Assembly (NCBI GenBank): GCA_965116535.1
Contig: OZ220703.1
Location: forward strand, 1,037,287-1,101,286
From: Acidimicrobiales bacterium
Lineage (GTDB): Bacteria; Actinomycetota; Acidimicrobiia; Acidimicrobiales; Bin134
Direction of reading: 5' to 3'
Length of the DNA stretch: 64,000 nt
The position numbers were made by a program, and so were the translations under genes. Below, one piece after another: positions 16,731 through 46,305 of this stretch. The notes below the pieces were generated by a model, which saw only the letters and a list, made by a program, of their open reading frames with translations, did not search any database and was not told the DNA's origin. Within the stretch, counting starts at the first letter, position 1; each line of letters begins with the position of its first letter.

Positions 16731-16815
16731 GGAGGGGTGCGAGAGCGGCCGAATCGGCACGCTTGGAAAGCGTGTGTGGCGCAAGTCACCGTGGGTTCGA
16801 ATCCCACCCCCTCCG
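16731..16815 (+). tRNA. tRNA-Ser (anticodon GGA)
   Basis: GGAGGGG acceptor stem pairs with CCCCUCC. Anticodon loop CUUGGAAAG, long variable arm (class II), T-arm GUGGGUUCGAAUCCCAC. No encoded CCA. Confidence 0.9.
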
Positions 16816-19409: not shown

Positions 19410-19476
19410 AATGATGCTGATTCTTGACAACCCATCCGCTCATTTGCGCCTGAGTGAGTGCTTGAAGCGTCAGCGC

Positions 19477-21423: not shown

Positions 21424-23153
21424 GCCGCCTCACCTCCTCTCTGGGAGGAGACGATCTCGGCGTAGGTGGGGCAGGTGCTGACCAGTTCGTCGTGACGCCC
21501 TTGGCCGACCACGATGCCCCCTTCGAGCACGATGATCTGTTCTGCGGTCTCGATGGTGGAGATCCGCTGGGCCACCACAAGCACGGCGGCATCGCGGGTT
21601 CGGGGTTCGAGGGCCTGGCGCAGTCGGGCCTCGGTGGCCAGATCGAGGGCGGAGAAGGAGTCGTCGAACAGGTAGACCGCCGGCTGGGCCACCAGAGCCC
21701 GGGCGATGGACAGCCGCTGGCGCTGGCCGCCGGACACGTTGGTGCCCCCCTGGGCGATGCGACTCTTGAGCCCGTCGGGCATCGACTGCACGAACCCCGC
21801 GGCCTGGGCCACTTCCAGGGCTTCCCAGAGTTCTTCGTCGGTGGCCTCGGGGCGGCCGTAGCGGAGATTGGAGGCCACCGTGCCGCTGAACAGATAAGCC
21901 CGCTGGGGCACATAGCCGATGGCCCCCCACAACAGATCCGGATTGAGCTGGCGAACATCGACACCGCCCACTGAGACCCGGCCGGAGCTAGCGTCGGCCA
22001 GACGGGCAGCCAGCGTCAACATCGTGGTCTTTCCGGCACCGGTCGAACCTATGATGGCGGTGGTCTCCCCAGGGACGGCAGTGAACGAGACACCCTCGAG
22101 CACGGGATGCTCAGCACCGGGATATCGGAAGCCGACCTCCTGAAACACTACGGTCCCGGGCCGGGTGAATTCCTGGACAGGGTCGGTTGGGGGGCTCACC
22201 GATGACTCGGTGTCGAGCACTTCGACGATCCGCTCGGCAGCCACCGCCGCTCGAGGGATCATCGACACCATGAACGCGGCCATGGTCACCGCCAAGAGGA
22301 TTTGGAGAAGATAGGTGAGATAGGCCACCAGGGATCCGATCTGGGTGGATCCGTCTTCGATTCGGTCGGCGCCGATCCACAACAAGGCCACGCTGGACAG
22401 GTTCACCAACAGCGTGACCGCGGGGAACACGGCGGCCATGAGCCGGGCTGCTCGCAACGAGGATTCGGTGAGGCGGTGGTTGGCGTCGGCGAAGCGGGCG
22501 CTCTCGACTGGCTCTCGAGTGAAGGCCCGCACCACCCGCACGCCGGTTATCTGTTCCCGCAGCACAGTGTTGATCCGATCGATCCGCTCCTGCATCTGCT
22601 GGAACGCCGGGTTCATGGCCACGATGATCGCCCCTGTCACCACAATCTCGAGAGGCACGACCACCAGCAACAGCACCGACAAGCCGGCGTCCTCTCGGAT
22701 GGCCAGCACCGTGCCGGCGATCATGGTGAGTGGAGCGGTGATCATCATGATCGTCACCAGCGCCGTCAACGTCTGGATCTGGTGGGTGTCGTTGGTGATG
22801 CGGGTGATGAGCGACGGGGTTCCGAATCGCCCGATCTCCCGGGTGGAGTAGCGGGTAATCCGGTCGAACACATCGCGCCGGATGTCTCGACCGAACGCCA
22901 TGGCCACCTCCGACCCGTACCAAACAGCCACGGTGAGCAGCGCCACCTGGATGAACGAGACCAACAGCATGATCCCGCCCATCCTCCAGATCACCGATTG
23001 GTCGCCAAGGAGGACGCCGTCGTCGATCAGGGTGGCGTTCAGCCCTGGCAGCAGCAATCCGGTGGTGGTCTGGCCCGCTTGGAGGATGAGGACGAGCACG
23101 ATGGCCCGCCGGTGGGGGGCCAGATGGCTCTTGAGAAGTCGTCGCAGGCTCAT
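21420..23153 (-). CDS. ABC transporter, fused permease/ATP-binding subunit (partner of 19477..21423)
   Basis: TM domain plus an NBD (GSTGAGKTT, VSGGQRQR, YLFDDSFSALD). A 4-nt ATGA overlap with the downstream gene suggests a heterodimeric exporter. Confidence 0.88.
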   Translation of the reverse strand: MSLRRLLKSHLAPHRRAIVLVLILQAGQTTTGLLLPGLNATLIDDGVLLGDQSVIWRMGGIMLLVSFIQVALLTVAVWYGSEVAMAFGRDIRRDVFDRITRYSTREIGRFGTPSLITRITNDTHQIQTLTALVTIMMITAPLTMIAGTVLAIREDAGLSVLLLVVVPLEIVVTGAIIVAMNPAFQQMQERIDRINTVLREQITGVRVVRAFTREPVESARFADANHRLTESSLRAARLMAAVFPAVTLLVNLSSVALLWIGADRIEDGSTQIGSLVAYLTYLLQILLAVTMAAFMVSMIPRAAVAAERIVEVLDTESSVSPPTDPVQEFTRPGTVVFQEVGFRYPGAEHPVLEGVSFTAVPGETTAIIGSTGAGKTTMLTLAARLADASSGRVSVGGVDVRQLNPDLLWGAIGYVPQRAYLFSGTVASNLRYGRPEATDEELWEALEVAQAAGFVQSMPDGLKSRIAQGGTNVSGGQRQRLSIARALVAQPAVYLFDDSFSALDLATEARLRQALEPRTRDAAVLVVAQRISTIETAEQIIVLEGGIVVGQGRHDELVSTCPTYAEIVSSQRGGEAA

Positions 23154-23249
23154 GGAAAAGGCGTTGGTGACAAGATGCCGCCCGGAACGATGTTATGGGC
23201 CGATTTGAGGCATCCTCCGCCAATTGACCCGGAGTTGGGGGAGCTCGGT

Positions 23250-24458
23250 TTAGATGATGCCGTCGGCTCGGAGGGCGTCCAGCTCAGTGGTGGACAGGCC
23301 GAGTTCGCTGGAGAGCACTTCGTCGGTGTGCTCACCGACGCGGGGCGCACCCGCGGGGGCGGGCGGTGTTTCGCCGAGCAGGCGGGGGAAGGGGGCCTGT
23401 TGGCGGACCGGTCCGACGATCGGATCCTGAACGGTGCAGATGTCGCCTCGGGCCAGCACGTGTTCGTCGGCGGTGAGGTCGGCCACGTCGTAGATCTTGC
23501 CGGCGGGCACGTCGCAGGCGACGCAGCGGGCCTCTATGTCGTCGGCGTCCGCCTCTGAGACCCATTGGGCGACTATTGCGTTGATCTCGACCCGGTTGCG
23601 GGCCCGGGCCGCCGCGGTGGCGAAGCGCTCGTCGTCGGCCAGCTCGGGGCGGCCCATTGCCCGACACAACCGCTCGAAGAAGACCTGGCTGCCGCCGACG
23701 ATGTACACGTAGCGAGAGTCGCGGCTGGCGTAATTGCCGATGGGCGCGGCGATGTCAAGGCTGTCGGCTGAGCGGTTGCGGACCATGCCAAGGCGGTCGT
23801 AGGCGGCGATTGTCCATTCCATGATGCGCAGCACCGAGCCGTACATGTACACGTCGATAACCCCGCCGGTTCCCGTTCCGCGGGCGTCGCGGTCATAGAG
23901 CAGGCTGGTGATGGCCTGAGCCGCGAACAGCCCGGTCAGGTAGCCGGCAATGTTCACACCCGGCCGGGCCGGAGGCCGGTCGGGATCGCCGGTGAGGTGC
24001 ATCAGCCCGCTGAAAGCCAGCGCGTTCCCGTTGAGGCCCGGCTGAAGCGACTTGGGGCCGTCTTGGCCGAACACGCTGAAGCGGGCCGTCACCACTCGGG
24101 GCGGAAGTCGGGAGGGGTCGATGTCCCAGCGTTCGAGGGTGCCGGGCCGGAAGCTCTCGCACACCACGTCACTGGAGGCGGCCAGGGCCCGGAAGATCTC
24201 CTGGCCCTGGGGGCGGCGCAGGTCGATGGTCACCGACTTTCGGCCCCGGCCCTCCACCGACCAGTAAAGGGAGTACATCTCGCCATCGTCATCGACATAG
24301 GGGCCGAGCTCTCGAAGGCGATCGCCCCGTCCGGGCTCCTCGATCTTGATGACTTCGGCGCCTTGTTCGCCCAAGATCCCAGCACAGAACGGAGCCGATA
24401 CCCGCGACCCCAAGTCGATCACCCGCAGCCCTTCCAGGGGTCGCCTCATCGCACTCAT
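23250..24458 (-). CDS. CoA-transferase family III (CaiB/BaiF-like) protein
   Basis: LEGLRVIDLGSRVSAPFCAGILGEQGAEVIKIE N-terminus, the FRPGTLERW motif, and GEHTDEVL near the C-terminus. Confidence 0.85.
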   Translation of the reverse strand: MSAMRRPLEGLRVIDLGSRVSAPFCAGILGEQGAEVIKIEEPGRGDRLRELGPYVDDDGEMYSLYWSVEGRGRKSVTIDLRRPQGQEIFRALAASSDVVCESFRPGTLERWDIDPSRLPPRVVTARFSVFGQDGPKSLQPGLNGNALAFSGLMHLTGDPDRPPARPGVNIAGYLTGLFAAQAITSLLYDRDARGTGTGGVIDVYMYGSVLRIMEWTIAAYDRLGMVRNRSADSLDIAAPIGNYASRDSRYVYIVGGSQVFFERLCRAMGRPELADDERFATAAARARNRVEINAIVAQWVSEADADDIEARCVACDVPAGKIYDVADLTADEHVLARGDICTVQDPIVGPVRQQAPFPRLLGETPPAPAGAPRVGEHTDEVLSSELGLSTTELDALRADGII

Positions 24459-24468
24459 TCCGTTCTTC

Positions 24469-25671
24469 TCATATCACGTTCCGCTTCCTCAAAGCAGCAA
24501 TCTCAGCTCTTGACAATCCCAGCAGGCTCGAGAGCACCTCCCCGGTGTGCTCGCCCAGCCGGGGAGCGCCCTCCGGCACCGGCAGCGAGCCGTTGTCGAA
24601 GCGGGGATAGGGGGCCTGCTGGCGAACCGGGCCGATGACGGGATCATCTACGGTGCACACGTCTCCGCGGGCGCGCACGTGGTCGTCGGCCACCAGGTCG
24701 GCAACGTCGTATACGACGCTGACGGGCACGCCGTGGCGACCGCAGCGCTCCTCGATGGCGGCGGCGTCCAGCTCTGATGCCCACTGGGCAACAGTCTGGT
24801 TGACCAACTCCTGATTGCGACGCCGCGCCTTTGATGTGGCGAAGCGCTCGTCGGTCGGCAGATCAGGCTGGCCCATTGCCTCGCAAAGGCTTTCGAACAC
24901 CGCCTGGCGCACAGCCACGATGCAGACATGCTGGCCGTCGCGGCTTCGGAAGTTGTCGAGCGGAGCGGCGTTCTCCGACCGATTGCCCGTGCGCTGGCGC
25001 ACCGATCCCAAACGGTCGTAAGCCGCGATAGTCCACTCCATGATCCGCAGCACCGATCCGTACAGGTAGGCGTCTACCACGCCGCCGACGCCGGTGCCCC
25101 GTGCGTCGCGCTCATAGAGCAGGCTGGTCACCGCTTGAGCCGCGAACACCCCGGTCAGGTAGTCGGAAACGGACAGGCCCGGCCGCATTGGAGGCTGGTC
25201 GGCTTGCCCGGTGAGGTGTGTCAGCCCGGCGAACGCGACGGCGTTGTGGTCGAACCCGTTATGCAGAGACTTGGGGCCCTGCTGGCCGTACAGGCTGATG
25301 CGGGCGGTGACCACCCTCGGATCGAGCCAAGACGGGTCGACATTCCAGCGCTCCAGCGTGCCGGGTCGGAAGTTCTCACACACCACGTCGGATTCCGAAG
25401 CCAGACGACGAAACAGATCTTGGCCCTCGGCGCTGCGAAGGTTGACGGTTACCGATTTGCGCCCTCGGCCCTCCACCGACCAGAAGAGGGAGTAGAACCT
25501 ACCGTCGTCATCAGTGGTGAAGGGCCCGTTCGTGCGGGTCCCGTCGCCGCCGATGGGATCCTCGATCTTGATGACCTCCGCCCCCTGCTCACCCAGGATC
25601 CCGGCGCAGAAAGGAGCCGCGATCCGAGTGCCCACATCCAACACCCTGACCCCGGCCAGAGGCTGCCTCAC
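24469..25671 (-). CDS. CoA-transferase family III (CaiB/BaiF-like) protein, tandem paralogue
   Basis: Collinear with 23250..24458 over its whole length, with long identical blocks such as APFCAGILGEQGAEVIKIE, SVEGRGRKSVT, YGSVLRIMEWTIAAYDRLG and GPVRQQAP. Confidence 0.85.
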   Translation of the reverse strand: MRQPLAGVRVLDVGTRIAAPFCAGILGEQGAEVIKIEDPIGGDGTRTNGPFTTDDDGRFYSLFWSVEGRGRKSVTVNLRSAEGQDLFRRLASESDVVCENFRPGTLERWNVDPSWLDPRVVTARISLYGQQGPKSLHNGFDHNAVAFAGLTHLTGQADQPPMRPGLSVSDYLTGVFAAQAVTSLLYERDARGTGVGGVVDAYLYGSVLRIMEWTIAAYDRLGSVRQRTGNRSENAAPLDNFRSRDGQHVCIVAVRQAVFESLCEAMGQPDLPTDERFATSKARRRNQELVNQTVAQWASELDAAAIEERCGRHGVPVSVVYDVADLVADDHVRARGDVCTVDDPVIGPVRQQAPYPRFDNGSLPVPEGAPRLGEHTGEVLSSLLGLSRAEIAALRKRNVI

Positions 25672-25781
25672 CGGGAATTCCCCGCCCTATCACACTCCGT
25701 CATCGGAGCAAATGCTATCAACTCCCCTAGTCGGCGCTAATGGGCTGGTGGTGTCGTCAGGCTGTGGAGGAGGCTTCTGAG

Positions 25782-26399
25782 CTAATGGGTAGGTGGTGTG
25801 GCAAGGCTGTGAAAGAGGTTTCTGACGAGCAATTCCCATTCTTGGGCGGAAGGCGGGTGTTGGTCGTCCCGCCCGGTCGAAAGCAGCAAGTGGGTGCCAA
25901 CTCCGACGGCCTGAATCAGCAAGGCGACGGCCGCGGTGCTGTAGCCGGGGTCGAAGCCCGACTCGTCTCGCCCCCGGTCCACGAGGCGGGCAATTTGGTG
26001 GGCCTGCTCGTCGAGGAATAACCGCAGGCGCTCTCGCACCGCGTCGTTGTTGCGGGCGCTGGCAAACACCTGCACCATCACGTCTTGGGTGTCGTCGCCA
26101 GACAAGATGTTGCCGGCCCACGCCGAAAAGATGTCGATCACCGGCACGTCTTCGATGCCCAGCTGCTTGATCCTCTCGGCGGGCAGAATCTGGTCGAAGA
26201 TGTGGTCGACGGCTGCGGCCATCAACTCGCTCTTGTTGGCCCACCGACCGAATACCGCACCCGTTGTCACCCCGGCGCGGCGCGCGATGTCAGCGATAAC
26301 GGCCTTGTCATAGCCGTGTTCCACAAACACCTCAGCGGCAGCATCCAACAGCCGCTTCGTTGTCTCGTCTGAATCCCTGCGCCGCACGTCATCAGCCAC
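25782..26399 (-). CDS. TetR/AcrR family transcriptional regulator
   Basis: N-terminal HTH TKRLLDAAAEVFVEHGYDKAVIADIARRAGVTTGAVFGRW; 205 aa. Confidence 0.85.
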   Translation of the reverse strand: MADDVRRRDSDETTKRLLDAAAEVFVEHGYDKAVIADIARRAGVTTGAVFGRWANKSELMAAAVDHIFDQILPAERIKQLGIEDVPVIDIFSAWAGNILSGDDTQDVMVQVFASARNNDAVRERLRLFLDEQAHQIARLVDRGRDESGFDPGYSTAAVALLIQAVGVGTHLLLSTGRDDQHPPSAQEWELLVRNLFHSLATPPTH

Positions 26400-26570
26400 A
26401 CGTACCCCCCCAGGGCAGAAAACTCATCGAAGTACAAGCTATCTGAAGAGGGAGCCCAGGGCCGACCGGACTTGGGTATAACTTGCACCAATGTATAGTG
26501 TGTACTATTATCGAGAATCTAAAGCTTGCGGGCCGGAACACGGGCCGGTTGCGGCTATCGTGGCTTTGCC

Positions 26571-27224
26571 ATGCCGTCCACGCCAGCGTCCCACTCCCGA
26601 TCTCCAGGTAGAGGGAGCAGTGCCGAGGAATCAACTGAGCGCCTGTTGGATGCCGCCGCCAGCGTCTTTGGCGAGAGCGGCTACGAGGGTGCCCGGGTCG
26701 CGCAAATCGCACGACGATGCGGCCTGACGACCGGGGCTGTCTATTCCCGATGGCTGACCAAACAAGAGCTGTTCCTCGCGGCAATCGAGCACCGGGCGTC
26801 GAGGGGCGCTGAAAAAGTGGCGGGCCGCTCCGAATTGTCGACACTTGAGAAACTTGCTGCCATGGGCGGTGGGCTGACCACGGCTGGTGATGACGAGGCG
26901 GGCAACCTGTTGCTCGAGGCCTGCGTAGTTGCCCGACGCGACGATTCAATGAGTGCAGATGTGGCGCGATCGCTCGACGAGGAGGCAGCGGTGATAGCCG
27001 CCATGATCGAGGAGGGCAAGGCCGCAGGGGAAATAGACGCGGCGCTGAGCACCGAGGCGATCGTGTTCGCATGCCAGTCGCTCAGTCTCGGGGTGCGGCT
27101 GGCCGCAGCGGCGGCACCACGCCGAGGACCACAGCCCTCAGCCGACGATTGGAATGAGCTGCTGGCTCGATTCATCAACTCCATCGGCCCGCGTGCCGGA
27201 GGGGTCGACCCAGCCAGTGACTGA
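26571..27224 (+). CDS. TetR/AcrR family transcriptional regulator (divergent paralogue)
   Basis: HTH TERLLDAAASVFGESGYEGARVAQIARRCGLTTGAVYSRW. Start moved to the ATG at 26571. Confidence 0.8.
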   Translation: MPSTPASHSRSPGRGSSAEESTERLLDAAASVFGESGYEGARVAQIARRCGLTTGAVYSRWLTKQELFLAAIEHRASRGAEKVAGRSELSTLEKLAAMGGGLTTAGDDEAGNLLLEACVVARRDDSMSADVARSLDEEAAVIAAMIEEGKAAGEIDAALSTEAIVFACQSLSLGVRLAAAAAPRRGPQPSADDWNELLARFINSIGPRAGGVDPASD

Positions 27225-27402
27225 GGGCGCCAGCGGCACAACCAAGACAGGCCCCTACGCCTTGGTGGTTCTTTCTCCCAACTCCTAGTGGCCTGCCGCT
27301 GGCCTGTTGACCTACCCAAACCAACAACCCGCGCCATCCCGCATTGGAATCATAGTGGCTACTACGATATATGCTCTCAGGCTGATAGCAGTACGAACTC
27401 CA

Positions 27403-27685
27403 ATGAGAGGGAGGCACAAAGAGAGCATCTACGACAGGGCCTACCCGCGACCCGGTTGCCTCCCGCATCGGCGGCGTGGTCGTTGCTGAGCTCACCCGGA
27501 CGATCCGGGATATTGCTTCTGAGTTGCCTTTGACCGCCGCTGACGGCGTTCCCCTTGACAGCGTGGTCAACTTCGACAACATCAACACCCTGCCTCGCCA
27601 CGCTTTTCGACGAAAGGTTGCCCAGCTCAGCCCTGCCCGCATGGCCGAGGCATGCCAAGTGCTCAAAGCCGCAACCGGCTGCTAA
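27403..27685 (+). pseudogene. Decayed PemK/MazF-family toxin remnant (frameshifted, N-terminal core deleted, no antitoxin)
   Basis: The C-terminal 69 aa (VVVAELTRTIRDIASELPLTAADGVPLDSVVNFDNINTLPR...LSPARMAEACQVLKAATG) matches my memory of the actinobacterial MazF pattern TVAPITSTIRDIPSEV..DGMP.D.A.N.D.L.TV. Upstream, TRDPVASRIGG continues in this frame but is closed by a TGA at 27404. An ATG (MRG...) sits in another frame, and about 10 residues of the N-terminal strand are missing. Confidence 0.5.
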
Positions 27686-27752
27686 CAGACCGACGGAAGC
27701 CCATTGCGGAGGGAGGCTCCCCACGACGGGGCGCGGTCCGGGCCGTCACCGG

Positions 27753-29447
27753 CTAGGTGACGACGACGCCCCTAATGGTTCCAGGATGGAGGATGACAGA
27801 TAAACCAAACGTTTGACTACCAATCTCGCACGTAGGCTCAATTTCGAAATTCCAAGTGCCGGCTGCTAGCGAGGTCAACGTGAGACGAATGGTGTTCATG
27901 CTGTCCACCCTGCGCTCGAAATTGTCACTCGCGTCGCCATAGTATATTTGATAGTACAGGTCACCCCGGCTCCCGCATTCCCGCATCATCTTTCCTAGAT
28001 CTTCGGGGGTCTCCCACCGCAGGGTCACGGTTCCGGCCCCCCCGGTGGCTCTGAAATTGCGGACGGGATTGATGGTGGGGGTCGTGCCACGGTCATGCAC
28101 GATCCGCAGGTTGACCTGTTGGCCCTCGGTCCAGCTGATGCTGGTGTCCAGGAATTTGTGAGCGGTCTTGTCAAGTATATAACGATAAGGATCAGTAGGT
28201 GTCGGAGCATGTCTAAGGGGAAGCCTTGCGGACCAGAAGGGGAGCGCCTCGCCGTCGACCTCCAGGACCAGTCGGTTCATGTCGTCGGCGAGGTCCTGGT
28301 CGACGTAGAGGTAGAGGCGGTCTATGGCCGCGGTGTAGAGCGACTTGATCGTGTAGGTGGTGCCGTCGTAGGTGAAGGTGTTGTCGCTCAGGACGCTGCG
28401 GTTGGAGCAATCGGAACTGGACCGGGGAGAGCCGTTGTCGAAGCATCCGAGCTGGCCGCTGCGCGCCACTGTCAGGGTGGCCGTCCACAGCTCGGTCGCC
28501 GACTGCCTCGCGATGGGCAGGTCATCTTGTTGGTCGGGGTCGCTGGGCGTTGTTGCTTGGCGGGTGTCGGAGCCCTCGCCGGCGCCTGCGCTGTTGATGG
28601 CTTTCACCTGGTACTCGTAGACGGTGTCGGCCGACACGGAGCTGTCGGTGTATTGCGTGTCGGTGCTGCCGGTGTCGTCGACCAGCACGGCCAGCTCCTG
28701 GGGCGGGTCGGCGCCGACTTCGCGGCGCAGCACCTGGTAGCCGGTGACGCTGTCATCGTCGGGGGCCTGCCACAACAACAGCACCGAGTCGTGGGTGGCC
28801 GCCGCCAGCAGGTTGCGGGGCGCGCCCGGAGGCGTCGACTGGGCGCTCGGCGACACCGCGTCGTCACGGTTGCCGTCGGGATCCTCGACGCCGGTCCCGG
28901 GGGCCGAGTTGGCCTTCGTGATGGTGAACGAGACCTCCAAGGCCCCCAGCTGGTTTCCACCCAGCCTCCGCCCGGCGTAGGCGACAGCGGTCACCGTGTA
29001 GGTGCCCGCAGGCAGGGCCTGGCCGTGCAGCCTCCTGACCCCGCTGTGCCGGTAGTCCCCGTAAAGCGAGTAGGGCACCAGGTTCTCGGTCTTCGCCGAC
29101 ACCGACTTCGGCCCGCTCAACGCCAGGCTCACGCTGCCCACCGTCTCGCCGGCGGCCAAATCGGCGCGGATCCCGTAACTGCCGCCGGCCGGGTCGGCCA
29201 ACTCCACGCTCAGCCCTTCGCTCAGCGTGGCCACCACGCCCTGGTCGGAGGCGTCTACCAGAGTGAAGCCCGCGAGTGGCCCCGCATCATCACCGTCATC
29301 GGAGGCCGACGTCGGCAGCGGGGAGACCAAGGCGGCGACCACCGCGGCCAGCAGGAGACAGACGGCAAATCTCCCCCCCCCCCGCTGTTTGCCCTTGCTG
29401 GGCGTCGCCCGCTGAAGGACCCGCAGAATGCCCGAACTTCTCTTCAC
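27753..29447 (-). CDS. Secreted/surface protein with fibronectin type III domains and an uncharacterised Cys-containing central module
   Basis: Signal peptide RFAVCLLLAAVVAALVSPLPTSA. A clear FN3 domain (PGAPRNLLAAATHDSVLLLWQAPDDDSVTGYQVLRRE...YEYQVKAINSAGAG) and a second FN3-like unit near the C-terminus (VRNFRATGGAGTVTLRWETP). The GTG at 29447 has AGAGGGA 7 nt upstream; the track uses the TTG at 29468. Confidence 0.75.
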   Translation of the reverse strand: MKRSSGILRVLQRATPSKGKQRGGGRFAVCLLLAAVVAALVSPLPTSASDDGDDAGPLAGFTLVDASDQGVVATLSEGLSVELADPAGGSYGIRADLAAGETVGSVSLALSGPKSVSAKTENLVPYSLYGDYRHSGVRRLHGQALPAGTYTVTAVAYAGRRLGGNQLGALEVSFTITKANSAPGTGVEDPDGNRDDAVSPSAQSTPPGAPRNLLAAATHDSVLLLWQAPDDDSVTGYQVLRREVGADPPQELAVLVDDTGSTDTQYTDSSVSADTVYEYQVKAINSAGAGEGSDTRQATTPSDPDQQDDLPIARQSATELWTATLTVARSGQLGCFDNGSPRSSSDCSNRSVLSDNTFTYDGTTYTIKSLYTAAIDRLYLYVDQDLADDMNRLVLEVDGEALPFWSARLPLRHAPTPTDPYRYILDKTAHKFLDTSISWTEGQQVNLRIVHDRGTTPTINPVRNFRATGGAGTVTLRWETPEDLGKMMRECGSRGDLYYQIYYGDASDNFERRVDSMNTIRLTLTSLAAGTWNFEIEPTCEIGSQTFGLSVILHPGTIRGVVVT

Positions 29448-29627
29448 TGTGCCGTCCCTCTGTCGCAAAGCGCACTGCCGACCGCAATGCGGCCAAAACC
29501 GTAACGGCTCAATATGCGCTACGCAACACTCTTGTCACAACCATGTCGGAATATGCACACAAGCCAGCCCGCCAACCGGCGCTGTTTGCGTTAGGGGTGC
29601 CGCCATGGCTCGGCGACGCTGATCTCA

Positions 29628-30104
29628 TCAAAAGTCCGGCGTGCCGGCAGCATCTTGGTCGCTTTGTCGGATTGGAGCGGGTTCGTCGAGCAAGACGAAG
29701 GTCTGCGCTGAGATCACTTCGGGAATCTGATGGAGCCGCTCGAGCACCGCATCGCGCAATTGGCCCAGGTCTTGGCACCGGATGAGCATCTGGATGTCGA
29801 AGGGTCCGCTCGTGAGGCCGATCCACTCCACTCCGGGCAGTCTCCTCAGTTGGTCGCGGGCTTTGCGCCAGCGCTTCTGGTCGATGTTGATCTGGACGAG
29901 GGCGGCCACGTGGAGGCCGAGTGCCGCGGGGGTAACGACGGCGGTGAAGCGTTCGATGGCCCCTTCTTCGACCAGGCGGTCGAATCGGTTGTAGGCAGTG
30001 GCCCGGCCTATACCGATTCGCCTGGCGAGGGCCGGTATGGACAGTCGGGCGTCGGCGCGCAGCAGTTCGATCATCTCAATGTCGATGTCATCCAGATTCC
30101 TCAT
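29628..30104 (-). CDS. Lrp/AsnC family transcriptional regulator
   Basis: DDIDIEMIELLRADARLSIPALARRIGIGRATAYNRFDRL HTH followed by a RAM/ACT-like effector domain; 158 aa. Confidence 0.88.
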   Translation of the reverse strand: MRNLDDIDIEMIELLRADARLSIPALARRIGIGRATAYNRFDRLVEEGAIERFTAVVTPAALGLHVAALVQINIDQKRWRKARDQLRRLPGVEWIGLTSGPFDIQMLIRCQDLGQLRDAVLERLHQIPEVISAQTFVLLDEPAPIRQSDQDAAGTPDF

Positions 30105-30201
30105 GGCGCAGATAATCTTATTGCAAAGTCTATTTATAGAAGTTCATCTTGATTTATTCTCATTTATAAATTTTTTAGCCGATATCTGGCAGAGTGAGTA
30201 G
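30105..30201. promoter_or_regulatory. Strongly AT-rich divergent promoter region between the Lrp regulator and the phenylalanine hydroxylase gene
   Basis: GCAGATAATCTTATTGCAAAGTCTATTTATAGAAGTTCATCTTGATTTATTCTCATTTATAAATTTTTTAG is the most AT-rich stretch in the window. Lrp-family proteins bind degenerate AT-rich sites. Confidence 0.45.
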
Positions 30202-31029
30202 ATGGATCAGGTTGGTTTGGAGCCGCCGGCCGAATATTGGCAACGCCGGCAGCTGATTGCGTCGGTCGCCGCAGGGGCCGGCAACCCGCCTGCTGACGTC
30301 GAATACACAGAATGCGAGCACCATGTGTGGGCGGCGGTGGTCGAGGCCCTCGTGCCGCTGTGGGAGAGAGCCGGCGCGACGGCCATCGGCGATGGCTTCG
30401 CCCGCCTCGGGCTGAGCCGTCATCGAATACCCCAATTGCGAGAAGTCACCGAAGCCCTTCGGCCTCTGACCGGGTTCAGCTTCGAGGCCGAGGCCGGCCT
30501 GGTCGACAAGGAGACGTTTTTCGGGGCGCTGTCGGAACGGCGCTTCGTCTCCACCCAGTACGTCCGCTGGGAGGGGGCGCCGCTGTACACGCCGGAACCG
30601 GACTTGATACACGAGGTGCTGGGGCACACCCCGCTGCTGGCAGACCCCGACCTCGCTTGCCTCCACGAGCTTGCCGGGCGCGCCATGACGCGGCTGTCGC
30701 TGCCCGAGTCCCGCCAATTTGCCTCCGATGTGTTCTGGTTCTCCGCGGAGTTCGGCGTGGTCCGCGAAGAAGGCGAATGGAGGGCTTACGGTGCCGGGTT
30801 GTTGAGCTCGGTCGGGGAGCTCGAGTGGTTCGGCGAACATGCCCGCATAGTCCCGATGGACATCGCGAAGATGGGCACGCATCCCTACGGCATCGACCGC
30901 TACCAGCCGGTGCTGTTTGGCGCGGAGTCCATCGCCCACGCGTTGGAGGTTGTCGGCGGATTCTTCGACACGTGCACCGACGAGTCCATCGCGGCCCTGG
31001 CCTCGCCTGTCCCCCAGAGGCGCAGTTGA
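30202..31029 (+). CDS. phhA: Phenylalanine-4-hydroxylase-like aromatic amino acid hydroxylase (pterin/non-haem iron)
   Basis: 275 aa bacterial-size AAAH. PEPDLIHEVLGHTPLLADP (HxxxxH iron ligands), WFSAEFG (Glu ligand), YGAGLLSS. Substrate specificity cannot be read from the sequence. Confidence 0.85.
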   Translation: MDQVGLEPPAEYWQRRQLIASVAAGAGNPPADVEYTECEHHVWAAVVEALVPLWERAGATAIGDGFARLGLSRHRIPQLREVTEALRPLTGFSFEAEAGLVDKETFFGALSERRFVSTQYVRWEGAPLYTPEPDLIHEVLGHTPLLADPDLACLHELAGRAMTRLSLPESRQFASDVFWFSAEFGVVREEGEWRAYGAGLLSSVGELEWFGEHARIVPMDIAKMGTHPYGIDRYQPVLFGAESIAHALEVVGGFFDTCTDESIAALASPVPQRRS

Positions 31030-31093
31030 CATCGCAGCGAAGCGATGAGCTCGCCAGCGCTCTCGCGCCAGTTGGCCGAGATAGGGCAGGCTG

Positions 31094-32512
31094 ATGGCGG
31101 AGGAAGTGTCGGTCGAGCCGGATCCCCTGGATCTCGATGCATTCCGCCGCAACGGTTACGCCCTTGTCGACTGGGTGAGCGACTACTTGGGCGGACTCGA
31201 CGAGAGGCCGGTGAGCACGCCGGTCGATCCCGGCGAGGTGCGGGCCAAGCTCCCGCAGAGGGCGCCAGAGAACCCCGAAGCCTTCGATGCGATACTCGCC
31301 GACCTGGACCGAGTGGTGGCCCCAGGCCTCAACCACTGGCAGCACCCGGGCTGGTTCGCCTACTTCCCGGCCGGGTCGTCCCCGGCTTCGATTCTCGGGG
31401 AAATGTCAGCAGCAGCCTTCGGGGTAGTGGGGATGATGTGGTCGACCTCGCCCGCGGCAACCGAGATCGAGTCGCACATCTTGGATTGGCTCGTCGACCT
31501 GCTCGGCGTTCCCCAACAGTGGAAGACAACCGGTCCCGGCGGCGGAGTGCTTCAGCCCGGCGCCTCCTCGTCCACCCATACCGCCCTGGTCGCCGCCCGC
31601 GAGCTTTGTCGCAAGCGCACGGGAGCGGTCCACGACAAGATGGCAGCGTACGCTTCCAGCCAAGCGCACTCCTCGTTCGAGAAGGGCGCCAGGATGGCCG
31701 GCTTCGGCCGCATACGGCTCCTGGACACCGACGACGGCTTCTCGCTGCGGCCCGACGCTCTTGTTGAGGCGGTCGTAGCCGACCGTCAGGCGGGTTGGAC
31801 TCCTGCCTTCGTCTGCTCGTCGGTAGGAACAACCGGCACCACCGCAGTGGACCCCGTTCGCCGCGTCGGCCAGTTGGCCGCATCAGAGAACATATGGCAC
31901 CACGTCGATGCCGCCTACGCAGGCTCAGCCATGATCTGCGAGGAGTTCCGCCAACACCAAGACGGTTTGGAGCTGGTCGACAGCTACACGTTCAACCCCC
32001 ACAAGTGGCTGGCCACCAACATGGGCTGTTCGGTGCTGTGGGTGGCCGACCGTGGCCCGCTCGTCGACGCGTTGAGCGTGACGGCGCCCTACCTCCAAAA
32101 TGAGGCGTCTGCATCCGGAGGGGTGATCGACTACCGGGACTGGCAAATTCAGCTCGGACGGCCGTTCAGCTCGCTCAAACTGTGGTTCGTGCTGCGGTCA
32201 TTCGGAGCCGAGGGCTTGCGCAAGATGATCAGGTCCCACGTCGAGTGGGCCCGCTGGATTGCCCAAATGATCGACGACCACTCCAACCTCGAGCTCATTG
32301 CCCCTGTCCCGTTCGGCTTGGTGCCGTTTGCCCACACTGGCGGCGAATCCGCCACCGACGCCCTTCTCGCGGCAATCAACGCCGACGGCCGCTTCCACAC
32401 CACCGGCTCACAGATCGAGGGCCGCCGCTACATCCGGATCTCGGTCGGCTCCATCTGGACGACCCAAGCCCACATCAAAGCACTTTGGGAGCTGATAGCC
32501 GCAAACTCGTGA
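31094..32512 (+). CDS. Pyridoxal-dependent aromatic-L-amino-acid decarboxylase (group II)
   Basis: HWQHPGWFAYFPAGSSPASILGEM, SSSTHTALVAARE, HVDAAYAGSA and FNPHKWL (PLP lysine). Starts 65 nt after phhA. Confidence 0.85.
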   Translation: MAEEVSVEPDPLDLDAFRRNGYALVDWVSDYLGGLDERPVSTPVDPGEVRAKLPQRAPENPEAFDAILADLDRVVAPGLNHWQHPGWFAYFPAGSSPASILGEMSAAAFGVVGMMWSTSPAATEIESHILDWLVDLLGVPQQWKTTGPGGGVLQPGASSSTHTALVAARELCRKRTGAVHDKMAAYASSQAHSSFEKGARMAGFGRIRLLDTDDGFSLRPDALVEAVVADRQAGWTPAFVCSSVGTTGTTAVDPVRRVGQLAASENIWHHVDAAYAGSAMICEEFRQHQDGLELVDSYTFNPHKWLATNMGCSVLWVADRGPLVDALSVTAPYLQNEASASGGVIDYRDWQIQLGRPFSSLKLWFVLRSFGAEGLRKMIRSHVEWARWIAQMIDDHSNLELIAPVPFGLVPFAHTGGESATDALLAAINADGRFHTTGSQIEGRRYIRISVGSIWTTQAHIKALWELIAANS

Positions 32513-33360
32513 TAGCACCGGCAACCGCCCAAAGCAGCGACACGGCTGCCGCCGTCGAGCGCGCACCAAGACGCGCCAAAGCGGGGTGTCAGCCAATTTT
32601 CTGGCCGGGGGGTTTTGCGAAGCTGACCAGGGGTTTCTTTGGAGCGACCAGCGGCCTTTTGATCGTGCCGTTCCCATGCTCGTCAATTGTCGTCAGATTC
32701 CATATCGGAATCCCGTTTTCTCTGCGCTCTGCCATGTGTAGCCCGTGGCTCCGGTGCCGGTGTCGAATCTCTCCCACTGTCCGATGCGGGCTGGGAGGGG
32801 CTGGGCCAGCGGGATGGGGTCGAAGACGTCGGCGGAGCTGCCGGGGTCGGCGCAGAGGCCGGAGGAGAGGATGTGGGTTGGCGGGCACCGATGTCTGGGG
32901 GCCTGTGTTGGGGGGCTGCCCCCGGGGACGACGCGGGTGTCGACGCCGAACATACACCGGTACGTGTTCAGCAGGTTCTCCTGGTCGGCGGTGAGCTGGT
33001 CGCGCTCGGCGCTCCGGTCAGGGTCGTGGGCTGAGGTGAGGCGACGGACAGGAGCGGGGCGACACCCGCGGCGGCGAGGGCGGCACGGAGCACCTCGGGT
33101 GCTTTCGGTGGCGGGACACACAGTAAGCGTCGATGACGGAACGGTCAACCGGGAGGGCAGGGTGGTTACCTCCGGGCTATCAGGTTCCGTGCCACCGAAG
33201 GCCCGTGATTCGCCCGGAGGGGGCGTGTTGACAAGGGAGGTGGGGTGAACGCCGGCCCGCTGTCTTTGTTGTCGCCGGCACCGCCGACGCCTCCCGGTGG
33301 GGCGGGTATCCGGGGAAGTGCGGGAAGGGGCGGTTGGCGGCTTCAGCGATTGCTGCTGTC

Positions 33361-33441
33361 GCGCGGTTACCGCTCGGTGATGAACAGAACGCGGTAACCG
33401 TCCGATAACAACATACGCGCGGTAACCGCTCGGTGATAACC
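33361..33441. repeat. Three direct repeats (about 25 bp, 28-bp phase) with palindromic core GCGGTWACCGC upstream of hipB
   Basis: GCGCGGTTACCGCTCGGTGATGAAC (33361), GCGGTAACCGTCCGATAACAAC (33391), GCGCGGTAACCGCTCGGTGATAACC (33417). Cores start at 33363, 33391 and 33419. A partial copy CCGTTACCGCGC lies at 35245-35256, just after hipA. Confidence 0.7.
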
Positions 33442-33481
33442 TGGGGGCGTGGCCGAGTCGCGTCGGATCAAGTCTACGGGA

Positions 33482-33766
33482 ATGAGGTTGCGGCTCGCGT
33501 CCGATATCGGCAACGTGATCCGCAACGAGCGCAAAGACAGCGGCATGAGCCAGAGCGAGATGGCGGCCGTCGCCGGCGTTTCCCGAAAATGGCTTAGCGA
33601 TGTCGAGAACGGCAAGGACACGGCTGAGATCGGCATGGTGCTCATGGTGCTGCGAAAGCTCCGAATCGACCTGCAAGTCGCCGAGAGGCCGCAGCCGGCA
33701 GTAGACCCTGGGGCATTCTTCGGCTCGCTGTCCGCTGAGCCACCGCCCGACGCGGAGCGCCCATGA
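33482..33766 (+). CDS. hipB: HipB-like XRE-family antitoxin / transcriptional regulator
   Basis: IGNVIRNERKDSGMSQSEMAAVAGVSRKWLSDVENGK HTH. ATGA overlap with hipA. Alternative GTG start at 33449. Confidence 0.75.
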   Translation: MRLRLASDIGNVIRNERKDSGMSQSEMAAVAGVSRKWLSDVENGKDTAEIGMVLMVLRKLRIDLQVAERPQPAVDPGAFFGSLSAEPPPDAERP

Positions 33767-35202
33767 AGCTGCATGTCTTGATCGCGGGCGAGCTGGCAGG
33801 CCAGCTCGACCTCAGCGGCGGAGAACCGGAGTTCCGCTATGGCGACGACTACTTCGAGGGGGCGCCCGGCCAGCCGCTGTCAGTGGCCTTCCCGGTCACC
33901 GGGCGGCGGGTGAGCGGCGAGCCGCTCAGGCATTGGCTGGAGGGGCTGCTGCCCGACGACCCCGACGTCATCTCGGCGTTGTGCTCTGAGCACGGGCTCG
34001 ACGTGAGCGACCGCCTCCGATTGCTGGGGACTCCCATGGGAGCGGATTGCGCTGGAGCAGTGCAAGTATGCCCGCCCGACAGACTGCCGGATCTGCGGGC
34101 AGGGAGAGGAGGCCAAGAGCCCATCGACGAGGAGGGCATCGGCGAATGGCTCACAAGAATGGAAATCGAGCCGGCCATGAGGGCCTACAGGTCGGAGGGC
34201 GCCGATTCGGGGTTCAGCATCGGCGGCATGCAGCCAAAGGTCGCTCTGCGGAGAACCGCCGGCGGCTGGGCTGTGCCCATGGGCGCGGTTCCCAGCACGC
34301 ACCTCATCAAGGCGTCGCGCGACAAGTGGCCGCATGAGGCAGTCGTCGAGCACCTGACGATGAGGACGGCCAGCATATGCGGGATCGCGGCGGCCCGCAC
34401 AGAGGTCGATTGGCACGGCGGCAGGGAGGTCATCGTCGTGGAGCGGTTCGACCGCACAGCCGACGGCCGCTCGCGTGTCCATCAAGAGGACATGTGCCAA
34501 GCCCTCGGACATCCCCCGACCCGCAAGTATCAGAGGAACAGCGGCCCCGCGCCAGAGGACATCGCCGGGATGCTGAGGGGGGCCGGCCCCGATGAGGCCG
34601 AGCAGAACATTGCACGGTTCTTGGATCACCTGCTGTACCTGTGGGTGGTGGCCGACACCGACGGGCACGCCAAGAATTACAGCATCCTCCACTTCGGCGA
34701 CGGGTCGATCCACCTGTCTCCCATGTACGACGCCTGCTCGTGGCTGCCGTACCGAAAAGGCAAGTTCGTGAAGAAACTCCAGCTGGCCATGAAGGTAGGC
34801 ACCGACTTCAGCCTCAAGACAGCCGACAGCGTCGACGGGCTGAGGCGAACCGCGGCAAGGCTCGATCTGCCGCCAGCGGCGGTGGCGCGCCGCGCATTCG
34901 AAATCGCATCGTCGGTTCCCGAGGCGCTGGCCGACGCGATGAAGACCGTGCCCGGCCACGCCCGCGGTTTCCAAGAAGTGCAGGCCCTGGCGGCCGAGCT
35001 GCCCGCCAGGGCTGAGCACTGCCTCCACATCGCGGAGTCCGCCGCCGGGCAATTCGCCCAATCCGGGCCGCAGTCCCGCATATCTGCCTTCCCAGCGAGG
35101 CCCGTGCCCGGCTCGTCCGGCCGTTGTCGGCACATAGGTGTGAAGTCGCGCAAGCAGTGTGTCCGCCCTGCCCACAACGACAAGAGGCACTGGTATCAGT
35201 AG
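33763..35202 (+). CDS. hipA: HipA-family serine/threonine kinase toxin
   Basis: HipA N-terminal coupling region (LSVAFPV...LRHWLEGLLPD), GGMQPKVAL, HLIKAS, HQEDMCQALG, and the catalytic DTDGHAKNYS. The last roughly 60 aa (…CRHIGVKSRKQCVRPAHNDKRHWYQ) look non-native. Confidence 0.85.
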   Translation: MKLHVLIAGELAGQLDLSGGEPEFRYGDDYFEGAPGQPLSVAFPVTGRRVSGEPLRHWLEGLLPDDPDVISALCSEHGLDVSDRLRLLGTPMGADCAGAVQVCPPDRLPDLRAGRGGQEPIDEEGIGEWLTRMEIEPAMRAYRSEGADSGFSIGGMQPKVALRRTAGGWAVPMGAVPSTHLIKASRDKWPHEAVVEHLTMRTASICGIAAARTEVDWHGGREVIVVERFDRTADGRSRVHQEDMCQALGHPPTRKYQRNSGPAPEDIAGMLRGAGPDEAEQNIARFLDHLLYLWVVADTDGHAKNYSILHFGDGSIHLSPMYDACSWLPYRKGKFVKKLQLAMKVGTDFSLKTADSVDGLRRTAARLDLPPAAVARRAFEIASSVPEALADAMKTVPGHARGFQEVQALAAELPARAEHCLHIAESAAGQFAQSGPQSRISAFPARPVPGSSGRCRHIGVKSRKQCVRPAHNDKRHWYQ

Positions 35203-35491
35203 GCAGACCAGGCACTGTGCGCCCAGTGTGCTCGTCCCGCGACTCCGTTACCGCGCCTGCTGAGACTAGGGCCTGGTTACAAAATCGGGGTGGATGAGGT
35301 CGTTCAAGTCGTTTTGTCCGCTACTCGCCTGCGGTCATAGCCGGCGACGGCGAGAGCGCCGAGGGCCCCCGCCATGATGATCGGGGGGCCGACGGCGGGG
35401 TGGGGCCAGCCCGCGAACGCCGCACCGAACACTGCGGCGAGCCCGGCTGCCAGCAGCTGAGTGCCCCTTGTTCATCCGGCACCCACATGTT

Positions 35492-35985
35492 CTATTCGGT
35501 GGCTGTTTCGGCAGTCAGCACGTCGTAGGGCGACACCTACCCGGCCATCGACCGGGCCATGCGCTCCATCTGCTGCATCATGTCCAGCCCGCGCTAGTTG
35601 TACCGCCCCGTGAACGCGCCCATGTAGCGGTCCAGGTAACTTGACGGAGTTTGTCAACACGCCCTAGCGGGGCCGCATGTCGTGGCTGAGTGCGAAGTAG
35701 CAGGCCGGCGGAGCGTTCCCCGGTCCTATTGCATAGGGTCAGAATCCGCAGCCGGCAATCGCGGCTTTGCCGCTGCGCACGTTCGTATCGCCGACAGCGT
35801 CGGCGCCGACTTTGCCGCCGAAGGCGCTCGAAGAACCTCTGCGGGGGCTGCTGGCTTCATAGTCTGAGAGGCAGTCTGTGGATATCATCACAACTGCCGC
35901 CAAGATATGGAGATTCTGCATACGATCCATGAGAAGACCTTTGCCGCCACCGGGAATCTGCGCCCCTTTGCCAACAGGCCTGAGT
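35492..35985 (-). pseudogene. Relic of an IS1595 (ISXO2-like) family transposase gene with in-frame stops and frameshifts
   Basis: Minus-strand translations give ...AAVVMISTDCLSDYEA...VGDTNVRS... (35739-35930). In another frame they give SYLDRYMGAFTGRYN*RGLDMMQQMERMARSMAG*VSPYDVLTA (35492-35653). This resembles my recollection of the C-terminal ..YV.EFAGRHN.R..DT.DQM...A.GM.GKRL.Y..L. block of ISXO2-like transposases. The 5' end is cut off at the SulP start. Confidence 0.4.
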
Positions 35986-35987
35986 AG

Positions 35988-37598
35988 ATGAGCATCCGGC
36001 AGAGCACCGTGGAAGTCCTCGGCGGGGTGACTTCTGCGATGGTCATGCTGCCGCTGGCGCTGGCATACGGGGTCGCATCCGGCCTGGGTGCTCTGGCCGG
36101 CCTATATGGGGCCGTAGCGCTCGGATTCATTGCTGCGGTCAGTGGCGGCACCCGGACAATGATCTCTGGGCCGACCGCGCTGATGGCGGTCGCCACTACG
36201 AGCATCATCTCGAATCACGATCACAACCTCACCGAAGTATTCACAATCATCATGCTGGCCGGTGCGATGCAGATTGTGCTGGGCGCAACCCGGGTCGGGC
36301 GATTCATCGCCTACGCCCCTTACTCCGTTGTGTCAGGGTTCATGACCGGCATCGGCGTCATCGTGATCGTCCTGCAGACGCGTCCGCTGCTCGGCTTGCC
36401 GATCGAAGGCAGAGGTGTTTTGGCCACAATTCGCTCGTGGACCGAGGACGCCCAGGATGTGGTGTGGCAGGCTCCCGTTGTAGCGCTCGTCGCTGTCGTC
36501 GTTCTGGTTGCCTGGCCGCCTTCTCTGCACAAGTATGTGCCGTCGGTTTTCGCTGCGCTGGTCGTCGGAACCGCGTTCGGGGCAGTGTGGCTTGGCGACG
36601 CTCCCACAATCGGCGCGGTCCCCACCGGAATGCCGGAGTTGCATACGCCTGATCTGTCGCCCGCGTCGCTGTTGCGAACTGTTCAGCCCGCGGTGACCAT
36701 TGCGTTGATCGGTTCGATCGACACTCTGCTGACAGCGCGGATCGCCGAGTCCATGTCCCGCCAGCCTCACAGTCCTCATCGGGATCTGCTGGGCCAGGGC
36801 GTAGGCCATGTTGCCACGGGCATCTTGGGAGGGCTGGCGGGGGGTGCGACGGTTTGCACGGTCGCGAACATCCGTGCAGGTGCGAGGACTCGCGTCTCAG
36901 GGGCTTTGTGCGCGCTGGTGCTGCTGGCGCTGGTCGGCGGGCTCGGACACCACGTCCATTGGGTGCCGCACGCGGTGCTCGCCGCGGTCCTCATGCAGGT
37001 CGGTTTCGACTTTGTGGACTGGCGCATGGTGCGCCGCCTGCATCAGGTTCAACGCGAGCACTTCATCATCATGGGGGTCACCCTGGTGCTGACGGTGTTC
37101 TTCGACCTCGTCACCGCTGTGAGCTTCGGATTCATCACAGCGGCACTGGCAGGCATGCGCCAGGTTGAGCGCCTCGAAGTGAACCGGATTGTCTCAACTC
37201 CTCTGCTCGACAACTACCTCTTTGGCCGCGACCCCGAAGACTGCGAGCAGCACAAGTTCTCGGCTAGGACGTGCTTGGTGGCGCTCCGGGGGAGCTTTAC
37301 GGTTGCGTCCTCGCATCGGCTCACCCGCACGATCGGCGCCGACATCGCCGACTACGACATCGTGGTGTTGGACTTCAGCGCGACGGACTACATCGACGAC
37401 AGCGCGGCCCTAGTGGTCGAATACCTCGTGGAGATAGCCCAGGGCCAGGGAACCGAGTTGATTGTCGTAGACGGAGGAGCGGCCGTCGAGATCTTGCATG
37501 TGCTGGGGATCCTGGACATGGTTCAGGACGAACGGTTCGTCGAGACGAAGGAGGAGGCATTCGGCGTGGCGCGAGAGCTGCTAGGCGATTTCCCATAG
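35988..37598 (+). CDS. SulP family inorganic anion transporter with C-terminal STAS domain
   Basis: Multi-TM N-terminal part (GGVTSAMVMLPLALAYGVASGL...) and a C-terminal STAS-like domain (LVALRGSFTVASSHRL...DYDIVVLDFSATDYIDDSA). Confidence 0.88.
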   Translation: MSIRQSTVEVLGGVTSAMVMLPLALAYGVASGLGALAGLYGAVALGFIAAVSGGTRTMISGPTALMAVATTSIISNHDHNLTEVFTIIMLAGAMQIVLGATRVGRFIAYAPYSVVSGFMTGIGVIVIVLQTRPLLGLPIEGRGVLATIRSWTEDAQDVVWQAPVVALVAVVVLVAWPPSLHKYVPSVFAALVVGTAFGAVWLGDAPTIGAVPTGMPELHTPDLSPASLLRTVQPAVTIALIGSIDTLLTARIAESMSRQPHSPHRDLLGQGVGHVATGILGGLAGGATVCTVANIRAGARTRVSGALCALVLLALVGGLGHHVHWVPHAVLAAVLMQVGFDFVDWRMVRRLHQVQREHFIIMGVTLVLTVFFDLVTAVSFGFITAALAGMRQVERLEVNRIVSTPLLDNYLFGRDPEDCEQHKFSARTCLVALRGSFTVASSHRLTRTIGADIADYDIVVLDFSATDYIDDSAALVVEYLVEIAQGQGTELIVVDGGAAVEILHVLGILDMVQDERFVETKEEAFGVARELLGDFP

Positions 37599-37622
37599 GG
37601 CGGTGCTCTCAGGTGGGCCGCA

Positions 37623-37685
37623 CCGGGGCGGTGCTGCCCGAACGTCGGCGACGGGGTATGCCGGGGCGGTGCTGCCCGAACGTCG
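37623..37685. repeat. Perfect 25-bp direct repeat CCGGGGCGGTGCTGCCCGAACGTCG x2 (period 38 bp) abutting the 3' end of tRNA-Ser(TGA)
   Basis: Copies at 37623-37647 and 37661-37685. A third partial copy GGGCGGTGCT lies at 37598-37607. The second copy ends 8 nt from the tRNA 3' end. Confidence 0.8.
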
Positions 37686-37692
37686 AGTTGAG

Positions 37693-46292: not shown

Positions 46293-46305
46293 GTGGTTCG
46301 GTCGC

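Follow-up and report, generated by a model that had tools for sequence, protein, structure and literature searches.

A stretch of 64,000 nucleotides (nt) from an Acidimicrobiales bacterium (GenBank assembly GCA_965116535.1, contig OZ220703.1, positions 1,037,287 to 1,101,286; hereafter "the window") carries a gene for a regulator of the Lrp/AsnC family, a divergently oriented gene for a pterin-dependent phenylalanine hydroxylase (PAH) of the phhA type and, directly downstream of the latter, a gene for an aromatic-L-amino-acid decarboxylase (AADC). The data support a recent joining of two units with separate evolutionary histories into one operon-like cassette, which selection has maintained in two or more closely related genomes. 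The identities of the genes, the integrity of their catalytic residues, the origin of each half, the rarity of the pairing and the action of purifying selection are established. The tentative reading that we prefer, to which we give somewhat less than an even chance, is that of a recently assembled, lineage-specific cassette, probably an Lrp-driven operon, that would convert Phe to Tyr and to aromatic amines (tyramine and/or phenylethylamine); within it, a Phe-to-tyramine pathway is plausible. The cassette comprises the following elements, numbered from the first letter of the window:

29628-30104, minus strand: Lrp/AsnC-family transcriptional regulator P0003, 158 amino acids (aa), with PF13412/PF13404 helix-turn-helix and PF01037 domains
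30105-30201, between the divergent genes: putative AT-rich promoter/operator spacer of 97 nt, 32% GC, with the box GTTCATCTTGATT at 30142-30154
30202-31029, plus strand: pterin-dependent phenylalanine 4-hydroxylase (phhA-type) P0001, 275 aa, PF00351
31030-31093, plus strand: intergenic spacer of 64 nt, with the Shine-Dalgarno-like element AGGGCAGG ahead of the ATG
31094-32512, plus strand: group II pyridoxal phosphate (PLP)-dependent AADC P0002, 472 aa, PF00282

The listing of open reading frames (ORFs) and family scans place the three genes where an initial annotation of this DNA had put them, with the regulator diverging from the hydroxylase as described; the decarboxylase start codon lies, as stated there, 65 nt beyond the hydroxylase stop on the same strand, after a gap of 64 nt. 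The divergent spacer had also been singled out as the most AT-rich of the window, and the lowest-GC 97-nt stretch (29%, at 30112-30208) indeed coincides with it, in a window whose overall GC content is 65%. Only 0.005% of all stretches of this length in the genome are at or below 33% GC. This genome, referred to here as G000, consists of a single contig of 3.70 Mb and is 95% complete. It was compared with the 80 nearest genome loci and 80 JGI metagenome loci that encode PAH (160 in total, with flanks fetched up to 5-6 kb). The survey also took in 10 other PAH-bearing genomes, the genomes of 40 species of the genus and 401 genomes sampled from the phylum.

The hydroxylase P0001 matches the Biopterin_H family (PF00351, 1.7e-53) over residues 10-255, and scores 238.4 bits on the NCBIfam phenylalanine 4-monooxygenase model NF008877, whose cut-off is 247. 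Its 2-His-1-carboxylate site, annotated as intact, is so: H137, H142 and E183 align with the iron ligands H285, H290 and E330 of rat and human PAH, and the triad is invariant in the homologue alignment A1. In the substrate pocket, W179 corresponds to W326 of human PAH (hPAH), a position occupied by Phe in tryptophan hydroxylases (TPH), and I231 corresponds to hPAH V379, the position of Asp425 in tyrosine hydroxylase (TH). The presence of Trp at the former and of a hydrophobic residue at the latter makes the pocket PAH-type rather than TPH- or TH-type, and P0001 is predicted to be a phenylalanine hydroxylase. Its active site is essentially the same as that of its relatives, since, of the positions conserved in 90% or more of 117 homologues, it deviates at just four (E97, L135, E156 and G230). 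In the Chromobacterium enzyme, the residue equivalent to W179, W180, governs substrate preference, and the wild-type protein hydroxylates Trp at approximately 0.4% of its rate on Phe (PMC4029321).

These residues bear on the suggestion that the cassette could encode a eukaryote-like neurotransmitter route, in which the hydroxylase would generate 5-hydroxytryptophan (5-HTP) or L-DOPA and the AADC would turn these into serotonin or dopamine. The Gly355 pocket of the decarboxylase does resemble that of DDC/TDC enzymes which accept 5-HTP, DOPA or Trp (10.1101/404970), and two of the lineage-specific changes of the hydroxylase, E97 at hPAH V245 and G230 at T378, are located near its active site. 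However, W179 matches the Trp326 shared by PAH and TH and not the Phe of TPH, I231 matches PAH V379, wild-type bacterial PAH is very slow on Trp, as mentioned above, and the hydroxylase is orthologous to catabolic phhA. The PAH-type pocket thus makes 5-HTP and serotonin, or DOPA and dopamine, very improbable outputs; among the products that had been put forward in the initial annotation, tyramine is the one that stands as plausible, and the monoamine-type two-step pathway proposed there stands with regard to its genes and to the identity of the AADC, but not for serotonin or dopamine, nor for the conservation of the gene pair (see below).

The hydroxylase and its regulator point to an origin in amino acid catabolism. 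Homologues of P0001 at 54-66% identity are annotated as phenylalanine 4-monooxygenases of Ilumatobacteraceae/Acidimicrobiales, followed by those of Solirubrobacterales and Nocardioides. Among the 80 nearest genome loci, HPPD is encoded within 6 kb of PAH in 52 and a fumarylacetoacetase-type match is found in 46, and in 30 of them an Lrp orthologue (43-68% identity) lies divergent and directly upstream of PAH; the metagenome loci display the same picture, with no AADC. In a maximum-likelihood (ML) tree, P0001 and its relatives at 96%, 88% and 81% identity form a single clade (SH-aLRT 100) that nests (SH-aLRT 96) with the Lrp-PAH-HPPD(-FAH) loci L013 and L056, and the PAHs of the window's own order are placed in the other major clade. 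The regulator P0003 carries an N-terminal winged helix-turn-helix (HTH_24/HTH_AsnC-type, PF13412, 4.9e-10) and a C-terminal RAM/AsnC ligand domain (AsnC_trans_reg, PF01037, 2.6e-11), as required for a feast-famine regulator of the Lrp/AsnC family. Furthermore, the Lrp-phhA spacers of L016, L017, L013, L078 and L079 harbor a GATCATCTCGATC-like box whose distance from the Lrp start codon is constant (it lies approximately 41 nt upstream), and the corresponding box at 30142-30154 of the window is a candidate operator. A sigma-70 consensus scan called no promoter within the AT-rich spacer, such a scan being uninformative for a high-GC actinobacterium, and a literature search on AsnC-type control of hppD yielded no usable paper. 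Gene neighborhoods, tree placement and the common spacer box together argue that Lrp-phhA is a Phe/Tyr catabolic module that G000 acquired from another lineage.

The observation that no pterin-4a-carbinolamine dehydratase (PCD, encoded by phhB) gene accompanies the hydroxylase is true locally, and G000 encodes one (PF01329, 1.1e-29) at positions 3060362-3060628, unlinked to the cassette. With regard to the accompanying generalization, that phhA is normally linked to phhB or to catabolic genes, HPPD is near PAH in the 52 genome loci mentioned above, and PCD was found in the fetched flanks of PAH in 1 of the 160 loci and in none of the 80 genome loci. The missing phhB is no anomaly, because PCD is rarely near PAH and is a core gene located elsewhere in the genome. 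PCD is present in 37 of the 40 genomes of the genus (G000 and 36 congeners); its core status in a genus of which all but one of the 40 species are devoid of any aromatic amino acid hydroxylase implies a PAH-independent role. HPPD, homogentisate dioxygenase (HgmA) and FAH were undetected in the single-contig G000 by family search and tblastn, and classical tyrosine catabolism downstream of PAH was rejected for this genome on that account. Tyrosine auxotrophy was likewise rejected as the reason for the presence of PAH: G000 possesses a tyrA/prephenate dehydrogenase domain, and PAH is therefore not needed for making Tyr.

The decarboxylase P0002 matches Pyridoxal_deC (PF00282, 5.6e-103), and is matched best, among PDB entries, by AADC, TyDC and DDC enzymes of plants and animals (E-values of 1e-129 to 1e-97), as compared to 1e-34 for CSAD/GAD and 1e-23 for diaminobutyrate (DABA) decarboxylase, so that its assignment as a true AADC, and not a glutamate- or diaminobutyrate-type enzyme, is upheld. 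The PLP lysine K304 (NPHKW), D272 and the stacking histidine of the small loop, H192, are all kept. In addition, Y333 of the large loop (APYLQNE) aligns with the catalytic Y332 of pig DDC, a position held by Phe in AtPAAS, a plant aldehyde synthase (bioRxiv 10.1101/404970); Y333 would thus mark P0002 as a decarboxylase rather than an aldehyde synthase. A separate observation concerns four homologues at 64-65% identity (P0229, P0232, P0236 and P0237; 4 of 118 bacterial homologues), in which Phe replaces the catalytic Tyr of the large loop (PSFLR); these are candidate bacterial aldehyde synthases, since the Tyr-to-Phe swap converts plant AADCs into aromatic acetaldehyde synthases. At the positions that determine specificity in plants, P0002 displays Ala93, Leu354 and Gly355, Gly favoring indolic and Ser phenolic substrates at this site (bioRxiv 10.1101/404970), and V112 and M114 correspond to I101 and F103 of pig DDC. 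Such a pocket is only suggestive, and what it suggests is non-phenolic or broad substrates.

The decarboxylase has an ancestry of its own. P0002 falls within a six-member AADC clade (SH-aLRT 98), four members of which (G010 copy 1, L136, G000 copy 2 and P0126, the last counted via its 90% cluster, which holds the truncated G000 copy) follow an array encoding a Peripla_BP_4 protein, an ABC ATPase, a permease and an Asp/Glu/hydantoin racemase; the pocket signature GVVGMMW...QLGRPF is identical in P0002 and these racemase-linked sisters. The second G000 paralogue (G000:C1:3186719-3187933, minus strand; locus L051, 4716-11714) is 80% identical to P0002 and ends a binding protein-ABC ATPase-permease-racemase operon, its 3' end being cut by an IS3-type element (HTH_Tnp_1 and rve). 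The racemase-AADC operon is intact in G010 and in the metagenome locus L136, where it is preceded by genes for an M19 dipeptidase, a PucR regulator and a DAO-type oxidase. The third copy, an AADC-like PLP decarboxylase encoded by a 508-aa ORF and 48% identical to P0002, is located at 44919-46445 of the window (minus strand), where it adjoins guaB-like and guaA genes; this copy is conserved in most species of the genus.

A terminator scan detected no terminator-like site in the 64-nt spacer (31030-31093), its predicted fold shows no excess structure with respect to shuffled sequences (z = -0.14), and an Rfam scan of 29400-33800 returned no match; an attenuator or riboswitch was rejected on these three grounds. 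The possibility that the spacer arrived together with the AADC from a racemase-AADC operon was also discarded, as alignment gave no convincing homology. The spacer is identical to that of L016, a metagenome contig which carries the same unit, at 61 of 64 nt. The common strand, the short gap and the lack of a terminator or structured element make for an operon-like layout, in which phhA and the AADC gene may be co-transcribed.

The preferred reading can be laid out as a series of steps. The Lrp/AsnC regulator and the divergent phhA would have been inherited as a unit from a homogentisate-route Phe/Tyr catabolic module that is common in Acidimicrobiia-like Actinomycetota. This unit would then have lost its HPPD and fumarylacetoacetase partners and gained, 64 nt downstream, an AADC from a subfamily whose genes usually follow those for an ABC importer and an Asp/Glu/hydantoin racemase. 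An Lrp responsive to aromatic amino acids would drive a single phhA-AADC transcript from the AT-rich spacer; PAH would turn Phe into Tyr, its tetrahydropterin being recycled by the chromosomal PCD, and the AADC would decarboxylate Tyr, and probably Phe as well, yielding tyramine and/or phenylethylamine in a genome without the homogentisate route. A flux from Phe through Tyr to tyramine is favored because the adjacent AADC is the only linked consumer of Tyr and the homogentisate route is missing. Co-transcription, the nature of the Lrp effector, the substrates and the sequential flux are points that we infer.

A number of observations weigh against this interpretation, and the first group relates to how shallow the pairing is. 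The conservation of the hydroxylase-AADC adjacency in relatives, on which the initial annotation had made its proposal depend, falls close to complete absence: the arrangement was found only in G000 and in one 96%-identical metagenome contig (L016), and is absent from the 88% and 81% relatives, from the 160 surveyed loci and 10 other genomes, and from 39 congeners. The 88% relative keeps Lrp-PAH within an aromatic-catabolic island that includes an integrase, and has its AADC (85% identical) at another place on the same contig, where it follows a binding-protein gene; the 81% relative has a dehydrogenase downstream of PAH. None of the 160 loci has a true AADC near PAH; the sole decarboxylase beside PAH among them, in L083, was set aside as a distant PanP/DABA-type enzyme on the opposite (convergent) strand. 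In the 10 other PAH-bearing genomes, the 100 kb on either side of PAH contain no PF00282 gene. PAH itself is scarce: of the 40 species of the genus, only 1 has it in its genome, as do 8 of the 401 genomes sampled from the phylum. Comparison of the window with L016 yielded dN/dS ratios of 0.17 for PAH, 0.19 for Lrp and 0.40 for the AADC, all from small counts, the last value being derived from only 36 differences over 309 codons; these ratios speak in favor of the preferred reading in that they indicate purifying selection on all three genes since the split from L016, with that of the AADC suggesting some relaxation.

The surroundings of the cassette, a decaying accessory zone, add to these reservations. 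The cassette lies between tRNA-Ser(GGA) at 16731 and tRNA-Ser(TGA) at 37692, in the company of genes for DUF4143 ATPases, CoA-transferases, TetR regulators, an FN3 protein, hipBA and a SulP transporter. In three other genomes of the comparison (G029, G036 and G016), the two ABC-exporter genes that occupy 19469-23155 of the window directly abut the tRNA-Ser(TGA) region, which identifies approximately 14.5 kb, with the cassette inside it, as island DNA. The region at about 23156-37690 of the window constitutes a hypervariable insertion hotspot beside tRNA-Ser(TGA), in which other congeners hold different cargo.

This setting gives substance to the possibility of a fortuitous juxtaposition, in which the AADC gene simply landed by an Lrp-phhA remnant in a decaying island and the genes are used independently, or are being lost, with no pathway to link them. 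The island is missing from congeners and contains toxin-antitoxin and insertion sequence (IS) relics, frameshifted ORFs and hipBA; the pairing is limited to one shallow lineage, the Lrp-PAH of relatives is followed by unrelated genes, and G000 already holds other AADC paralogues. However, the whole Lrp-PAH-64 nt-AADC unit is intact in L016, which is 95.8% identical over 29672-32020 of the window, despite a different left flank that includes a restriction-enzyme-like gene; purifying selection is evident for three genes with complete active sites; and no terminator separates the hydroxylase from the AADC. We consider chance juxtaposition unlikely. With regard to that flank, the L016 sequence to the left of Lrp (1-918, minus strand) encodes a 182-aa protein without a Pfam match, followed by a gene with a terminal restriction-endonuclease-like motif, and the L016 cassette thus appears to sit in a different, defence-island-like context.

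The second group of reservations concerns substrate and product. The P0002 pocket is hydrophobic (A93, V112, M114, L354 and G355) and does not include the Ser/Thr with which PsTyDC and pig DDC contact the phenol (10.1101/404970); because no residue of this kind would contact the phenol hydroxyl, P0002 may prefer Phe or Trp over Tyr. Phenylethylamine appears to have an evident catabolic fate in G000, where paaA/paaC of the phenylacetate pathway are encoded at 3214271-3216426, and tyramine appears to have none, since no HpaB was found over the cut-off. A search of G000 for copper amine oxidase was negative, and the genome encodes several members of the flavin amine-oxidase family. The cassette is adjoined by no transporter, antiporter or amine-modifying gene.

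Such considerations could instead be accommodated by two parallel, co-regulated Phe sinks, both induced by Lrp when aromatic amino acids are abundant: the AADC would act mainly on Phe (or Trp), phenylethylamine being channelled into amine oxidation and the paa pathway, and PAH would separately convert Phe to Tyr. The Gly-type pocket without a phenol-binding Ser/Thr, the paa and flavin amine-oxidase genes, the lack of HpaB and the catabolic appearance of an AADC subfamily that natively neighbors importer, racemase and FAD-oxidase genes are all in its favor, but the pocket rules were derived from plant enzymes and lack validation in the present bacterial clade, the substrate range of many bacterial AADCs is broad (reviewed in PMC12607914), and no amine oxidase or aldehyde dehydrogenase gene is linked to the cassette. 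We regard this arrangement as fairly unlikely. A stricter version of the preferred cassette reading, on the doubtful side of possible, would have it as a natural operon that mirrors engineered PAH-plus-decarboxylase pathways, with one Lrp-controlled transcript leading from Phe through Tyr to tyramine; the latter would be excreted as an end product, given that neither tyramine nor homogentisate catabolism is encoded.

Bacterial trace-amine production is normally attributed to a decarboxylase that acts by itself on amino acids taken up from outside. If the cassette does work as one operon, it would lead from Phe to tyramine and/or phenylethylamine by a compact route that brings its own regulator, and would be a clear case of pathway rewiring, in which a catabolic Lrp-phhA unit keeps its switch and has its downstream enzymes swapped. 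Its practical value is modest, as a ready-made part for amine biosynthesis and as a starting point for the study of amine signalling in an actinobacterial lineage that has received little attention, and its general significance is limited by its shallow distribution. The cassette arranges known parts in a new way; the literature searched yielded no account of a natural bacterial operon in which an aromatic amino acid hydroxylase (AAAH) is joined to an AADC.

Each of these parts can be recognized in characterized or widespread systems. The actinobacterial Lrp/AsnC-phhA-hppD-fumarylacetoacetase modules, such as those of Ilumatobacter nonamiensis (L065) and of the metagenome locus L013, are orthologous to the cassette (57-62% identity for PAH and 54-68% for Lrp) and share with it the divergent arrangement, the spacer box and the lack of an adjacent PCD; they include HPPD and FAH, whereas the cassette has an AADC instead, in a genome without the homogentisate pathway. 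The ABC importer-racemase-AADC operons (L048 of G010, L136 and G000 copy 2) employ the same AADC subfamily, at 77-80% identity to P0002, and keep the importer and racemase, both of which have been lost by the cassette copy that sits behind Lrp-phhA. PhhR of Pseudomonas is sigma-54-dependent, and the cassette regulator is, unlike it, of the Lrp/AsnC type. The Pseudomonas phhABC genes include an adjacent phhB (PCD) and the phhC aminotransferase, neither of which is found in the cassette, where a decarboxylase lies downstream. Within the account of phhRABC given in PMC9048412, which cites Zhao et al. 1994, the two systems are alike in having a monomeric, bacterial-size, pterin-dependent PAH and a dedicated aromatic-amino-acid regulator.

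The resemblance to eukaryotic monoamine synthesis, in which TH or TPH is followed by DDC/AADC, lies in the combination of an AAAH-family hydroxylase with a DDC-family AADC, P0002 matching pig DDC at approximately 1e-114 with its catalytic Tyr, His and Lys kept. In contrast to that system, the cassette hydroxylase is PAH-type and lacks a regulatory ACT domain, tyramine or phenylethylamine is the amine to be expected, and the pairing is genetic (operon-like) and evolutionarily shallow. Finally, the tdc operon of enterococci and lactobacilli (tyrS-tdc-tyrP-nhaC; PMC12607914) and the cassette could both yield tyramine from tyrosine by means of a PLP decarboxylase; the tdc enzyme, however, is a protein of approximately 620 aa from another decarboxylase lineage that works with the TyrP antiporter, whereas that of the cassette is a 472-aa DDC-type enzyme, with neither a Tyr/tyramine antiporter nor the acid-stress logic of tdc, and whose precursor would be supplied by PAH.

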